Source: a virus (lineage: Duplodnaviria > Caudoviricetes). Taken from it: 64,000 nt of DNA. The notes below the pieces were generated by a model. That model ran no database searches and was not told the DNA's origin. It saw only the letters and a program-made list of their open reading frames with translations. Below are positions 10,190 to 43,357 of this stretch, piece after piece (within the stretch, counting starts at the first letter, position 1; every line of letters starts with the position of its first letter). The position numbers and the translations under genes were made by a program. Location of the stretch: the IMG/VR virus record IMGVR_UViG_3300050491_000011. One strand, 5' to 3'.

Positions 10190-10203
10190 TCACTATTATA
10201 TAT

Positions 10204-10470
10204 GTACTAGGCTGCTTCGGGCTGATGAAGCCAAGTATCATGCTAGGTGGGCTCACACGCTCCTCCACCTAGCCACTGAGGTCGGGACGCTCTCCTCGAC
10301 CTAGGCGTTGATGTTCGCGGGTTCGTCAACGTCTTGTTAGGTACTCAGTACTTAGCCGTTTGTTCAGGGTATTGCGAGAGCGCGCCTTGAGCAAACGGAT
10401 AGCTACTGCGCCCCTGTGTGTTATCGGTATTCTCCCCACCCACTGGATTCGTCTGGTGGGTGGGGTTTAT
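10204..10470 (+). ncRNA. Candidate structured ncRNA 1
   Basis: No ORF with an SD; six tandem hairpins plus a terminal 14-bp UUCG hairpin; G-U pairs fit only the + strand; starts at TATG 10201-10204. Confidence 0.65.
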
Positions 10471-10534
10471 GCTGCGTTAATAAACCGCAGTCACACATTA
10501 CCATTTTAGATACACCAACCAAAGGAGAAGTTCC

Positions 10535-13438: not shown

Positions 13439-13480
13439 GTCGTAATCCGTAATTAGTTACAGATGGCGATGTACTACTAT

Positions 13481-13807
13481 GTAGAAACACCCTCGTTGAT
13501 TAGTCAACGCCCAGTTGATACACCTAGCTCTTTTACAATTTGGGTCTCCCTGCCGATAGTCTTGAGTACGGTGCCAATACGGTCACGCTCTTGCTTCCCT
13601 CGCATAGACAACTCGCTTAGCTGGTATAAAGCCCAGCAAACCCCTAGCGGTCTGACAGAGTCTGATCGCGTTCCCTAAGAGTTTGGAATAGTACCAGTAC
13701 AGTACGGGTTCAATCGCCGCGATTGCTTTAGTACTCGAACAAACGTGCCGGGCCTTTCGGAGCATCCCGTAAGAAATATAAAGCCCGGCCTCGCGCCGGG
13801 CTTTATG
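13481..13807 (+). ncRNA. Candidate structured ncRNA 2
   Basis: About 330 nt between an 18-nt promoter-like motif plus TATG and a terminator; several short hairpins; no convincing ORF. Confidence 0.4.
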
Positions 13808-13810
13808 CTG
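13778..13810. terminator. Hairpin terminator, ATAAA...TTTATGC class
   Basis: ATAAAGCCCGGC-CTCGC-GCCGGGCTTTATGCTG. Confidence 0.8.
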
Positions 13811-13890
13811 CATGCGTAATAAAAGAAAACAGAGTCTTATATTGTACACTTGAATCTATACCGCCCCTAATACCCGCACGGAGCATCAAC

Positions 13891-14733: not shown

Positions 14734-15549
14734 GTGATTTCCGTGAGCGATATTAAAGTCATGGTTAGCGGTGCAGTGGGCGTTGGTAAGAGTCACGTAT
14801 TGGCGGTCATTGAGCGAGCCTTGAATGAGGCTTACGGAGATACCATCAAGATCGAATGTGAGGACACTGAGAGCGAGCGTCGATCTATCGGTGAAGACAT
14901 CCGTGAGTGGCAGCAGCCTACGGTTGAGAAGATCATTCTAACGCCGTATACGGCGTGGCGTCGAGAAGAGATCGTTGAGGATGGCGACGTACCTGCCCTC
15001 GATTACTTTAGTGAGTGGACGACAGGTCGGGTAAGTGAAGTAGTCCCTGCTAATCTGTCTCCGTCTGAAGTCAGCGATATGGTTAAAGCTTTCGATGAAC
15101 TGTATCCTCCGTTCAAGCCTCGGTACGAATCGCTGAATGGTCGGATCATTCGGATGGATGAAGGTCATCCAACTGCGGCTAAAGCAGCTCTCGCCAAACT
15201 GGCTGAGTCTGCGAACTTACTGCACGTCGAAATGTTCATGCCGGGTGATACCAACCAGATGATCGGGCTGGGTTACATGAATGACGCCAACCTCGCAGTG
15301 CAGTACGCGAACCTTATTAAAGGCATGGTCTTCGATATGGCATTCGTTGAACCGTACTTCGGTGATCAGGAAAAGGTCACTACGTTCCGTAATGTAGAAG
15401 TCCAGTCTGCGATGACTCAAAAGAATGACGGTAAGACTTCAGCGTCCGTTGGATTCAAAGTCGGTAAGATGCGCGTCCACCTTCGGAATAAGCACGACAA
15501 CGATCCATTGCAGTTCGGCATTCCTCTTGGCGTTACCGAGGAAAGCTAA
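14734..15549 (+). CDS. Hypothetical protein with N-terminal P-loop-like motif
   Basis: VMVSGAVGVGKSH Walker A-like motif; start codon uncertain (GTG). Confidence 0.7.
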   Translation: MISVSDIKVMVSGAVGVGKSHVLAVIERALNEAYGDTIKIECEDTESERRSIGEDIREWQQPTVEKIILTPYTAWRREEIVEDGDVPALDYFSEWTTGRVSEVVPANLSPSEVSDMVKAFDELYPPFKPRYESLNGRIIRMDEGHPTAAKAALAKLAESANLLHVEMFMPGDTNQMIGLGYMNDANLAVQYANLIKGMVFDMAFVEPYFGDQEKVTTFRNVEVQSAMTQKNDGKTSASVGFKVGKMRVHLRNKHDNDPLQFGIPLGVTEES

Positions 15550-15582
15550 TCCGTAATTAATTACGGGTGATGGAATCAGTAT

Positions 15583-15767
15583 GTGAGAACGTCCTCCGAC
15601 CATTAAAGTCCTAAGCTTGGTCGCCCAATGTCCTGCGTGGTCGTGGGGTGTCTTCACGTTCAATGAGAAGTTGTACGGTTGCGGTATTTCCTGTGCTTAA
15701 ACTCTCATCCGCTCATTGAACATCTTGCACTCCGTCGGTGGCTTCGGTCATCGACGGGGTTATTTTT
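15583..15767 (+). ncRNA. Candidate structured ncRNA 3
   Basis: Starts at TATG 15580-15583; 6-bp and perfect 10-bp stems; 13-bp C(UUCG)G terminal hairpin with 3 G-U pairs; no ORF. Confidence 0.5.
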
Positions 15768-15836
15768 CGCTTTATGCTGCATGTTAGGGATCGTATGTAG
15801 TGAATTGGTTCGCTACTTTTAGCAAGGAACTTCACC

Positions 15837-16361
15837 ATGAAAGTGAATATCGCTATCACCGCCAAGGCTAACATCTTGGCAGCAATCAACGCGGCCAACG
15901 CTGCAACGTCCACCAACATCACTGAAGCTCAAGTGACCTGGGAGTTGCCTGTCGTATCCGCCGGCATTGCCGGCCGTAACACTAGCGTAACTCTGTTCGG
16001 CATTGACGGTCAAGGCATCGAAGGTGGTCGTACCTTCTCATACACCCGTCAACCGCTGAGCGGCGGCGCTATCGCCACCACCGCCCCTGCTTTCGTACCA
16101 ATCCTCGAGGCCGACACCCGTCCTCAGGTATTGGCGAAGGTCATCACCGCTCTGGGCCTGCTGGCCAGCGAGATCGAAGACATCTCGTACACCGCTCCTG
16201 TGGATCTCGCCACTCCGGGCACCATGCAGATCGCGGCAATCGCGAACAGTTACCTGTACTACGATCTGAAAGACGTCGAAATCCGTCTGGCAGACCTGGA
16301 CGTACCGTTCGCTGAAATCGCTCCAATCGTTGACTTGGATGCTTTCGAAGCTGAAGAGTAA
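15837..16361 (+). CDS. Virion structural protein, repeated adaptor-like (N-module) family
   Basis: ILAAINAAN...NTSVTL.G...G.EG...F.Y.R motif shared across the array; upstream TATG. Confidence 0.75.
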   Translation: MKVNIAITAKANILAAINAANAATSTNITEAQVTWELPVVSAGIAGRNTSVTLFGIDGQGIEGGRTFSYTRQPLSGGAIATTAPAFVPILEADTRPQVLAKVITALGLLASEIEDISYTAPVDLATPGTMQIAAIANSYLYYDLKDVEIRLADLDVPFAEIAPIVDLDAFEAEE

Positions 16362-16371
16362 TTGATGTAAA

Positions 16372-16403
16372 CATAAGGCCCGGCTTCGGCCGGGCTTTAT
16401 GCT
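16372..16403. terminator. Hairpin terminator, CATAA...TTTATGC class
   Basis: CATAAGGCCCGGC-TTCG-GCCGGGCTTTATGC. Confidence 0.8.
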
Positions 16404-16445
16404 ATGCGAGGGGTGTTTATACTCTTCACAGTTTGAGGGTTCCTT

Positions 16446-40424: not shown

Positions 40425-40457
40425 CATAAAGCCGGGACTTCGGTCCCGGCTTTATGC
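40425..40457. terminator. Hairpin terminator, CATAAA...TTTATGC class
   Basis: CATAAAGCCGGGAC-TTCG-GTCCCGGCTTTATG. Confidence 0.85.
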
Positions 40458-40572
40458 CGTCTACGGCTATTAGTGGATAAAGAAATTACAGCCATACATT
40501 ACTAAAATAGGCGTAGTAGGAAAGAGTAAAACAATTGGGGACCGTAGTTATATACACAGGGGCAATAAGGTT

Positions 40573-41704: not shown

Positions 41705-43357
41705 ATGCATACTTGGTTATTTGACGACTTGCAGCAAAGGATGCCTGTTTTCAATCAGGACATTCTGGATGGCCTCGCCTATCGCGGCCTGGACGATGCT
41801 AAAGGCCTCGTAGATCAGACTATTGCGTGTGCTGAAAACAGTTATCCAGATGACTTTGAGTACAACGGATCTTACATCTGTAGTCCTCAAGAAGCGTACA
41901 GCGTTATGTCATCTTCGCTGACACGCTCCGATCGTTCCACCCCCTCCATCGACTTAGCGCAAAGCGATGTCTACATGGTGAAGTATCAGTTCTCCTGTAA
42001 TGGCGTTCCGCTATACCCGCGGTACTTCTGTCTGCCAGCACCGCGGCGCGGTGGTTTGCTCACAATTACAGGAAAGCAATTTGCCATCGGCGATGTTCTC
42101 ACAGACCCTGGCCTTTCGATAGGCCAGGACTTTGTGTTCATCCGTATGTCACGCGCTCCGGTTACATTCAAGCGCCTGATCTACACCGTTTTGAAAGATG
42201 GAGAAGATTACTCCGAGTACATTGCTTATTCTTGGTTGCACCATCGGTCTGCCAACAATAACAAGAAGTCGGAAAGTGACACCATCACGCTAGGTAAGGT
42301 GATGTCTACTCTGCCGCATTATCTCTTCTGCCGTTATGGCTTGAAGGAGACGTTCGCTCGGTTTGCGTATTGCGATGTTGCAATCGTTACCGAAGAGTTC
42401 TTGGCGGAGAACCCTGTTGACCCGGACAAGTACACCGTAGTCAGATCAGCCAAGTCCCGGCCGGCTGCATTGAAGCTGCGTGTGCATTACCCTGATATCG
42501 CTACAAATCTCTGCTTGATCATTCCTAAAGCGGCTACCAATCAACTTACCATGGCTTTCGCCCTGGCCTTCTTCTATCTCGTGGATCTGTTTCCTCAGGA
42601 TCTGCTGGTTGAAGACTTGCTGGGTGATGACATCTGGAAGCGCTGGATGGGTTACGTTCTCTTTGGCGACCAGATGTCTGTTGGTAAGCTGGTTGAGAAC
42701 GTGGTGAGTCACCTCATCAGTCTGGATGATTACGTAGACATCGAGGTACGCAAGACTCTGCTGGATGAAGAGAACTTGGATGTTGAAAACCTCTACGAGT
42801 TCTTCGCTTACATCCTCGTTCAGATCGATCACCTGATCGACTCGAAAGCGGAATCCATTGGCTCCATGTATGGAAAACGCTTGGTGACTGCGCAGTATGT
42901 ACTGCGTGACATCTACGAGCAGATCTTCCGGTGTCTCTTTGAGATCACAAACAACCGGAAGCGTAAGCACACAGCGGATGACTACAACAAGATCTTGGGT
43001 AAGTTCTTTATGCCCACGATCATCTTCAACCTTCGCAAGACCAGCAGCAAACCGTTTATGTCCAGCGTGTCTACACCTGGCGACAACATGTTCTTCCGAA
43101 TCACATCTCGCTTGGTAATGCAGGCGCAAACAAGCGCTGGGCGTAAATCCCAGAACTTGAACGTGAACGATCCACAATCGTGGCTCGACGGTTCGATTGC
43201 TGAAGGGGGTAACCACCTTATCCTTCCGAAGCACTCCCCACTGGGTCGTAATACGATCAACCCGACAGTGGAACTGGACGAGAAGAACACGATTGTGCGG
43301 AAAGAACACATGAAGCCAATCGTTGCGCATATCGACGCCGCTATCGGCCGTAACTAA
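41705..43357 (+). CDS. Non-virion RNA polymerase beta-type subunit (phiKZ gp123-like)
   Basis: 550 aa; P.FN..I.DGLA N-terminus and AEGG...LPK.SP.GR..INP C-terminus; syntenic downstream of the capsid gene. Confidence 0.75.
   Translation: MHTWLFDDLQQRMPVFNQDILDGLAYRGLDDAKGLVDQTIACAENSYPDDFEYNGSYICSPQEAYSVMSSSLTRSDRSTPSIDLAQSDVYMVKYQFSCNGVPLYPRYFCLPAPRRGGLLTITGKQFAIGDVLTDPGLSIGQDFVFIRMSRAPVTFKRLIYTVLKDGEDYSEYIAYSWLHHRSANNNKKSESDTITLGKVMSTLPHYLFCRYGLKETFARFAYCDVAIVTEEFLAENPVDPDKYTVVRSAKSRPAALKLRVHYPDIATNLCLIIPKAATNQLTMAFALAFFYLVDLFPQDLLVEDLLGDDIWKRWMGYVLFGDQMSVGKLVENVVSHLISLDDYVDIEVRKTLLDEENLDVENLYEFFAYILVQIDHLIDSKAESIGSMYGKRLVTAQYVLRDIYEQIFRCLFEITNNRKRKHTADDYNKILGKFFMPTIIFNLRKTSSKPFMSSVSTPGDNMFFRITSRLVMQAQTSAGRKSQNLNVNDPQSWLDGSIAEGGNHLILPKHSPLGRNTINPTVELDEKNTIVRKEHMKPIVAHIDAAIGRN

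Follow-up and report, generated by a model that had tools for sequence, protein, structure and literature searches.

Giant phages of the phiKZ type transcribe their genomes using their own polymerases. To our knowledge, almost nothing has been reported on the non-coding RNAs (ncRNAs) of these phages; we know of only a few short RNAs of giant phages, seen by long-read RNA sequencing, and of none with a function. In 201phi2-1 and phiKZ, intergenic short RNAs and others derived from 5' untranslated regions (UTRs) were found by Oxford Nanopore Technologies (ONT)-cappable-seq (PMC11512511). In phiKZ, TATG is essential in the late promoters of the non-virion RNA polymerase (nvRNAP), with its last G as the start site, and middle promoters carry AAanTTACc centred near -24, some of them together with TATG (PMC4666361). 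The sigma-like subunit of the phiKZ enzyme contacts promoter DNA at about -22/-23 and -18/-19 (PMC12809450), and middle promoters drive a tRNA in 201phi2-1 (PMC11512511). Here we analyse an intergenic locus in a 64,000-nucleotide (nt) stretch of viral DNA (the window; bases 124199-188198 of the 188-kb IMG/VR virus record IMGVR_UViG_3300050491_000011, estimated to be 75% complete), which we read, with a probability of about 0.6, as a stand-alone gene for a structured ncRNA of ~185 nt in a phiKZ-like jumbo phage.

The window encodes an nvRNAP beta/beta' homologue (41705-43357), a PHROG 2943 match that shares 37% identity with the nvRNAP subunit annotated in Pseudomonas phage pPa_SNUABM_DT01, as well as a DnaB-like helicase and many 'virion structural protein' paralogues. 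Judged by these genes, the source phage is an uncultured phiKZ-like jumbo phage (nvRNAP-encoding, nucleus-forming type) that is distant from every isolate. The RNA locus occupies a 287-nt gap (15549/15837) between two genes that are both on the + strand.

According to our reading, the phage nvRNAP would start at G15583 of a TATG initiator, aided by CCGTAA-N4-TTAC at about -32 to -19 and by a GAAC element at +5 to +8; this would be a promoter of the phiKZ/201phi2-1 'middle' type, which the phage would also use for its tRNA operon. The transcript would fold co-transcriptionally into two hairpins, H1 and H2, and be released at a third, the terminator H3 (15729-15767). With its 5' end buried in the H1 stem and its 3' end in the terminator hairpin, the RNA would be expected to be stable. 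The invariant apical modules of H1 and H2 would be the working parts, each exposing UCCU-NN-GCUU for a partner in trans (a protein or a purine-rich RNA). An earlier note, made from the letters of this DNA, had proposed either a small RNA or a switchable leader at this place. The small RNA fits what we found, namely a promoter of the tRNA-operon type, a predicted start at the base of H1, a strong terminator, conservation far above that of the neighbours' synonymous sites and no conserved open reading frame (ORF).

Predicted fold, promoter and terminator of the RNA locus

The locus was compared in six sequences, consisting of the window and five relatives (L001, L004, L005, L006 and L007) from scans of IMG/VR and of JGI metagenomes; L001 lies within a complete 253,921-bp genome with terminal repeats (G001). 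Folding of 15583-15768, by RNAalifold and as a single sequence, gave the same three tandem hairpins (Table 1), with a 7-nt linker between H2 and H3. The whole 234-nt stretch folds at -82.3 kcal/mol (z = -4.3), a value as good as which was found in 0 of 200 shuffles. When the terminator was left out, z was -3.1 for the window and -4.3 for L001.

The stems seen in the earlier note are present, and each has its place in this fold. The H1 helix opens with the pair G15583-C15657, and its base is a perfect 12-bp helix in L001. The CGACCA of the claimed CGACCA/TGGTCG stem (15597-15602) has two possible partners, since TGGTCG occurs at both 15618-15623 and 15638-15643; in H1 it pairs with the second, thereby extending the long helix. 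In H2, GTTCAATGAG (15658-15667) pairs with CTCATTGAAC (15712-15721) in a perfect 10-bp stem, as had been described. The stems are also kept in the relatives, which the earlier note had made a test of the RNA: across the six sequences, 98.9% of 276 pair cells hold standard pairs and three cells are unpaired. Eight pairs are changed on one side, each change interconverting a Watson-Crick and a G-U pair, and one pair is changed in a compensatory manner. Six of the one-sided changes fall in H1, where they remain paired via G-U, and two H1 pairs have unpaired cells; H2 has, in L001 and L006, the compensatory pair (G-C to A-U, at the stem base) and two U-A to U-G changes. The window RNA contains 12 G-U pairs. 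Folding gives -82.3 kcal/mol for the + strand versus -62.8 kcal/mol for the - strand. This G-U pattern fixes the RNA strand as +.

Substitutions and indels are confined to the basal stems, internal loops and linker; the six sequences do not differ at all over ~35 nt at the apex of H1 and over ~37 nt within H2. Both of these invariant modules contain UCCU-NN-GCUU (15609-15618 and 15689-15698), placed in an internal loop in one case and across the apical loop of H2 in the other. We take the two UCCU-NN-GCUU modules to be a putative contact surface for a partner. As a separate observation, CUAAGCUUGG (15611-15620), within the invariant module of H1, is self-complementary over 10 nt, with two G-U pairs and an AAGCUU core; two RNA molecules could thus pair loop to loop.

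Upstream of the hairpins, the perfect 16-bp palindrome reported by the earlier note, CCGTAATTAATTACGG, is indeed present. The 188-kb genome holds 14 perfect 16-bp palindromes (about 2 in shuffles), and the palindrome by itself is not remarkable. The sequence CCGTAA-N4-TTAC has four genome copies, or six matches counting both strands, where 0.16 would be expected. The composite motif CCGTAA-N4-TTAC-N14-19-[T/G]ATGT-N0-3-GAA has exactly four matches in the 188 kb, all of them intergenic and on the + strand: ahead of the tRNA operon (Asn, Ser, ... Asp), a protein gene at genome 115942, a neighbouring module called ncRNA 2 (window 13447) and the RNA locus, where TATG starts 15 nt past the upstream element. 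The complete relative G001 carries the element before its tRNA operon, ncRNA 2 and the RNA gene. Among the six aligned sequences, the upstream element is invariant in five and has one central change in L001; among the four genome copies, only CCGTAA...TTAC is common, and the final two bases are GG, GG, AG and TG. The variable final bases and the central change in L001 indicate that symmetry is not the conserved property, and the palindrome is more likely an upstream element of a promoter than an operator with functional symmetry. We also considered the palindrome as a terminator of the upstream gene and rejected it, as it is AT-rich and has no U-tract on the + strand, unlike the GC-rich, UUCG-loop terminators of this phage. 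The fourth promoter copy, CCGTAA-N4-TTAC...TATGTGAAC, lies at genome 115883-115942 (about -8315 in window numbering) ahead of the protein gene, whose product has ~113 amino acids from a TTG start and a hydrophobic, signal-peptide-like N-terminus; this promoter class is therefore not confined to RNA genes.

The TATG that had been noted at 15580 is present as well (15580-15583), and the pairing of H1 begins with its G15583. The non-coding DNA of this genome is three-fold enriched in TATG, holding 26% of the sites in 8% of the sequence. As in phiKZ-type middle and late promoters, it overlaps the predicted start, and TAATTACGG supplies the TTAC-containing A/T-rich motif that the phiKZ middle class has near -24, at the distance given in Table 1. 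In the other three promoters, the C of TTAC is found at -19 to -22. Of the 9 positions in the phiKZ logo, the individual copies of the element match 5-8. Furthermore, the tRNA leader and the 5' UTR of gene 15837 likewise contain a hairpin beginning at or just after the G of (T/G)ATG. Taken together, the position of TTAC, the coincidence of the G with the first pair of H1, the shared layout of +1 and hairpin, and the enrichment of TATG suggest that 15551-15583 is a middle-type phage promoter. No sigma-70 promoter was found on the + strand within 15550-15836.

At the other end of the locus, H3 has the G+C-rich hairpin and the U-tract of an intrinsic terminator. It contains 8 G-C pairs, folds at -23.4 kcal/mol as a hairpin alone and has a pairing probability of 1.0. 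It corresponds to the 13-bp C(UUCG)G hairpin with which the earlier note closed the region (13-14 bp at 15729-15760, followed by TATTTTT).

Table 1 Features of the RNA locus and of its two flanking genes (window coordinates)
Feature	Coordinates	Strand	Details
Predicted primary transcript, ~185 nt, three tandem hairpins	15583..15767	+	Minimum free energy -70 kcal/mol for 15583-15768
Putative promoter upstream element CCGTAA-N4-TTACGG (palindrome CCGTAATTAATTACGG)	15551..15566	+	TTAC at -22 to -19 relative to G15583
TATG initiator; G15583 is the predicted +1	15580..15583	+	Invariant in 6/6 sequences
Hairpin H1: long basal stem and invariant apical module (~15603-15640)	15583..15657	+	RNAalifold consensus
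Hairpin H2: 10-bp stem GTTCAATGAG/CTCATTGAAC around invariant inner module (~15671-15707), UUCCU apical loop	15658..15721	+	Closing-pair probability 0.995
Intrinsic terminator H3: 14-bp stem with UUCG loop (15729-15760), then UAUUUUU	15729..15767	+	Top terminator-like site in the region
TATG start candidates for gene 15837: TTTATGCTGC at 15770-15779 (TATG 15773-15776) and CGTATGTAG at 15792-15800 (TATG 15794-15797)	15770..15816	+	Context outside the RNA
Upstream neighbour: 271-amino-acid P-loop protein	14734..15549	+	PHROG 3787 (function unknown); weak AAA matches below Pfam cut-offs
Downstream neighbour: 174-amino-acid virion structural paralogue, DUF7941	15837..16361	+	PHROG 1037/2935/3589 'virion structural protein'; PF25613

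Conservation, coding potential and surroundings

The intergenic block is present and strongly conserved in all five relatives. Over the predicted RNA, up to and including its U-tract, the identity with the window sequence is 0.994 in L004, 0.978 in L005, 0.945 in L007 and 0.882 in both L006 and L001. In the last three, the four-fold degenerate sites of the upstream and downstream genes alike are just 0.45-0.58 identical. The conserved block begins right behind the upstream stop codon, and the RNA element forms a local conservation peak in each comparison.

Beyond these relatives, little was found. Searches of 50,697 phage records by megablast, blastn and tblastn returned relatives of neither the region nor the downstream protein, and one weak partial match to the upstream protein. 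Exact-core scans of IMG/VR found just the single known relative. The invariant cores had zero matches in 185,579 prokaryote genomes (two scans), and thus there is no sign of a host-derived RNA. A covariance model of the RNA (R1) found one copy each in G000 (the window's own genome record) and G001, with no paralogues; it found nothing in the genomes of four isolates (phiKZ, pPa_SNUABM_DT01, LucasX and Xoo-sp14), for which a model built from near-identical sequences is weak at detecting remote homology. Rfam 15 gave 0 matches in the whole window at gathering thresholds and 0 at E <= 10 in 15400-15900. ARAGORN detected no tRNA or tmRNA genes in the window; the tRNAs of the phage lie at genome 88979-90208. 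In G001, the RNA is located at 249026-249179, ~4.8 kb from the right end of that genome with its direct terminal repeats.

The earlier note had also stated that no ORF exceeds about 18 codons. This holds for ATG starts, but GTG and TTG starts give ORFs of 20-47 codons on the + strand. On the - strand, ORFs with GTG or TTG starts reach up to 74 codons, one of them overlapping the upstream gene. No ORF of at least 20 codons is shared by all six sequences, L007 lacks any over H1 and H2, and the region contains indels of 2, 3 and 4 nt. The ORF sets differ between sequences, and no in-frame ORF with a ribosome-binding site is kept as in a small-protein gene.

Possible targets of the RNA were searched for in two ways. 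For antisense pairing within the phage genome, the only 14-nt match lay on the non-coding strand of a gene, and match counts were near chance. When the two exposed modules were paired with 230 translation start regions, the duplex energies were no better than those of shuffled loops, with gene 15837 ranking 60th and 69th.

The neighbouring proteins, compared with PHROG and Pfam, give no hint of the function of the RNA. The upstream P-loop protein is 54-88% identical among the relatives and has 10 relatives among 5.8 billion proteins. Its gene (14734-15549) is a divergence hot spot, having ~85% nucleotide identity and four-fold sites of 0.69-0.70 in L004 and L005 between flanks of 99-100%; such divergence between conserved intergenic blocks suggests cassette exchange or diversifying selection.

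Several observations concern TATG sites outside the RNA. The 5' UTR of gene 15837 contains a hairpin, GUAGUGAA-UUGG-UUCGCUAC (15797-15816), which begins at the G of the TATG at 15794-15797 and is invariant save for a U-G to C-G change in L006 that keeps the pairing. Genome-wide, ~18-20 GC-rich terminator hairpins have (C)TTTATGC(T/C)G (CTGTATGCTGTT on the - strand) no more than a few bases further on, and a gene 40-130 nt downstream; the examples in the window are at 10466-10475, 13801-13815, 15770-15784, 16395-16405 and 40450-40460. From its sequence, this arrangement looks like a fused cassette of a terminator and a TATG (late-type) promoter. The sequence GCTTTATGCTGCATG is identical after ncRNA 2 and after the RNA locus (ncRNA 3). 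A second TATG context, (T)AGTAATGTATG(G/C)NTGT and then a T-rich stretch, has five intergenic cases, all on the - strand, at genome 22422, 70618, 72570 and 97170 (outside the window) and at window 40497; this AGTAATGTATG context may be another promoter class.

Weighing the alternative explanations

The best-surviving alternative, though still unlikely, is that the structural gene array has a 5' leader or attenuator at this locus. In that case, a transcript from 15583 would read into gene 15837, H3 would act as a regulated premature stop, and the RNA would be a short RNA derived from a 5' UTR. The RNA indeed shares its strand with the gene that opens the structural array and lies immediately ahead of it, and in 201phi2-1 premature termination within 5' UTRs accounts for 8 of the 11 short RNAs, including one that is conserved ahead of a tail gene (PMC11512511). 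However, nothing competes with the terminator, whose probability is 1.0. The switch proposed by the earlier note relied on ATGAG pairing with CTCAT instead of within the 10-bp stem. CTCAT is found at 15704-15708 as claimed, but this pairing has a probability of ~1e-4 versus 0.995 for the 10-bp stem, and the alternative is not conserved, as CTCAT reads CTCAA in L007. Forbidding H3 left the rest of the fold unchanged, and the 5' arm of H3 found no partner, so that no antiterminator was detected; the best duplex of this arm with upstream RNA reaches -12.8 kcal/mol versus -23.4 kcal/mol for the hairpin, and would require H1 to open. Mutually exclusive structures of the kind seen in riboswitch or attenuation leaders were thus absent from the predicted folds, and the switchable leader of the earlier note is not borne out. 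Moreover, gene 15837 has two TATG candidates and a 5' hairpin of its own past the terminator, and the invariant apical modules have no evident connection to the terminator. Given the negligible alternative pairing, the terminator probability of 1.0 and the gene's own start candidates, an attenuator or riboswitch-like leader appears unlikely from this modelling. Some read-through past H3 is possible.

Two further alternatives are each improbable. In the first, the element would be the structured 3' UTR of the upstream P-loop gene, without a promoter of its own, which either protects the mRNA or is cut out as a 3'-UTR-derived RNA. There is no terminator from the stop codon at 15549 to H3, so transcripts of the upstream gene should pass through the element. 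On the other hand, the promoter motif shared with the tRNA operon is placed exactly between the stop codon and H1, and the RNA is 94.5% identical where the upstream protein is only 54% identical, indicating that the RNA does not co-evolve with that gene.

An element acting at the DNA level only, to which we give no better odds than to the 3' UTR, would be a conserved promoter/terminator linker that mosaic recombination uses as a homology arm, or a region bound by protein, with a functionless RNA. The locus is mosaic, as illustrated by L004, in which the upstream gene has 85% nucleotide identity between flanks of 99-100%, and other intergenic blocks are likewise conservation peaks. Yet the ~145 nt from promoter to terminator would then need no conservation, and the fold energy is well past that of shuffles. 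The changes between the sequences also respect RNA pairing on the + strand; a G-U pair would be an A-C mismatch in a DNA cruciform or on the - strand.

That the locus encodes a small protein is highly improbable: a 14-codon ATG ORF (15570-15614) is open in the window and L001, and some sequences have the TTG- or GTG-start ORFs mentioned above, but the former lacks usable Shine-Dalgarno spacing and starts upstream of the predicted +1, and none of the latter survives the comparison of the six sequences with its frame-shifting indels.

Several points weigh against the stand-alone RNA gene itself. Covariation is thin, as there are six sequences (effective number 0.79) with one compensatory pair, and 22 of 500 shuffles reach the score. 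In this mosaic locus, other blocks are 95-99% identical, and recent recombination rather than selection could explain part of the conservation. The start site and the polymerase are both predictions drawn from sequence, and the TATG context here, agTATGtg, differs from the commonest one in the genome, ttTATGc[ct]g. No terminator parts the upstream gene from the RNA, and the same RNA could also arise as the 3' UTR of that gene. In addition, no target was found, with complementarity to translation start regions at the level of shuffled loops.

With these points set against the evidence above, a stand-alone gene for a structured ncRNA is the explanation that we prefer: it would be a real structured RNA gene, not described before, in a small clade of uncultured phiKZ-like phages. 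The gene is sharply delimited, with invariant modules and with a start, a stop and a fold that can be predicted. If the RNA is made as predicted, it would give a direct handle on promoter recognition by the nvRNAP at middle-class promoters and on RNA-based functions of these phages, and the signature CCGTAA-N4-TTAC ... TATG ... GAAC could help to find stable-RNA genes in other uncultured jumbo phages.

A bolder extension, which we regard as speculative and probably wrong in its full form, is that this RNA, ncRNA 2 and the tRNA operon constitute a promoter-defined stable-RNA regulon in a clade of nucleus-forming-type jumbo phages, with the UCCU-NN-GCUU modules docking a phage or host factor. 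If it were true, such a factor could serve, for example, in the take-over of translation, in RNA export from the phage nucleus or as the host RNA-targeting defence for which the RNA is a decoy, and the regulon would represent a class of phage riboregulators without a described counterpart.

Comparison with sister modules and known phage systems

Within the window, two sister modules, ncRNA 1 (10190-10480) and ncRNA 2 (13443-13810), lie within 6 kb together with the RNA described here, and all three are ORF-free, non-coding intergenic units. Each module ends in a terminator, which is followed by TTTATGCTGC. In addition, ncRNA 2 has the same upstream element and similar first 17 nt; it begins TATGTAGAAACACCCTC, close to the TATGTGAGAACACCCTC of the present RNA in relatives. 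Homology among the three modules was considered and rejected, since their bodies are unrelated and blastn finds shared signals only. The segment 13684-13834 is 97-99% identical in L006 and L001.

A place in the chimallivirus sRNA005/sRNA-gp182 family (201phi2-1, phiKZ, EL and PA3) was not supported: R1, which is weak for remote homology, found nothing in phiKZ at E <= 10, and tblastn of the downstream protein gave no match in the 50,697 phage records.

The small stable RNAs C and D of phage T4 are another parallel, being phage-encoded RNAs of unknown function that are co-expressed with phage tRNAs. They are cut from the precursor of the tRNA cluster in which they are encoded. Unlike them, the RNA described here is a separate unit at a distance of ~50 kb from the tRNA operon, with which it has only the promoter type in common.

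In kind, the present RNA can be grouped with the short RNAs of 201phi2-1 and phiKZ. They, too, belong to giant phages with an nvRNAP, combine a start site with an intrinsic terminator within 250 nt, lie in intergenic regions or ahead of virion genes, and are conserved among related phages. In contrast, there is no homology of sequence or structure (the R1 search of the four isolates found nothing), and those RNAs were seen experimentally whereas the one here is predicted. Also unlike them, the present RNA has a recognisable promoter of the tRNA type.

Like the middle promoters of phiKZ and 201phi2-1, the predicted promoter has TTAC after A/T-rich bases at -22 to -19, with TATG over the predicted +1; unlike them, its element is extended to the partly palindromic CCGTAA-N4-TTAC and is joined by a downstream GAAC(A). 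The parallel extends to the tRNAs: 201phi2-1 has a tRNA driven by a promoter of the middle class, and in the phage described here the tRNA operon is preceded by its counterpart.

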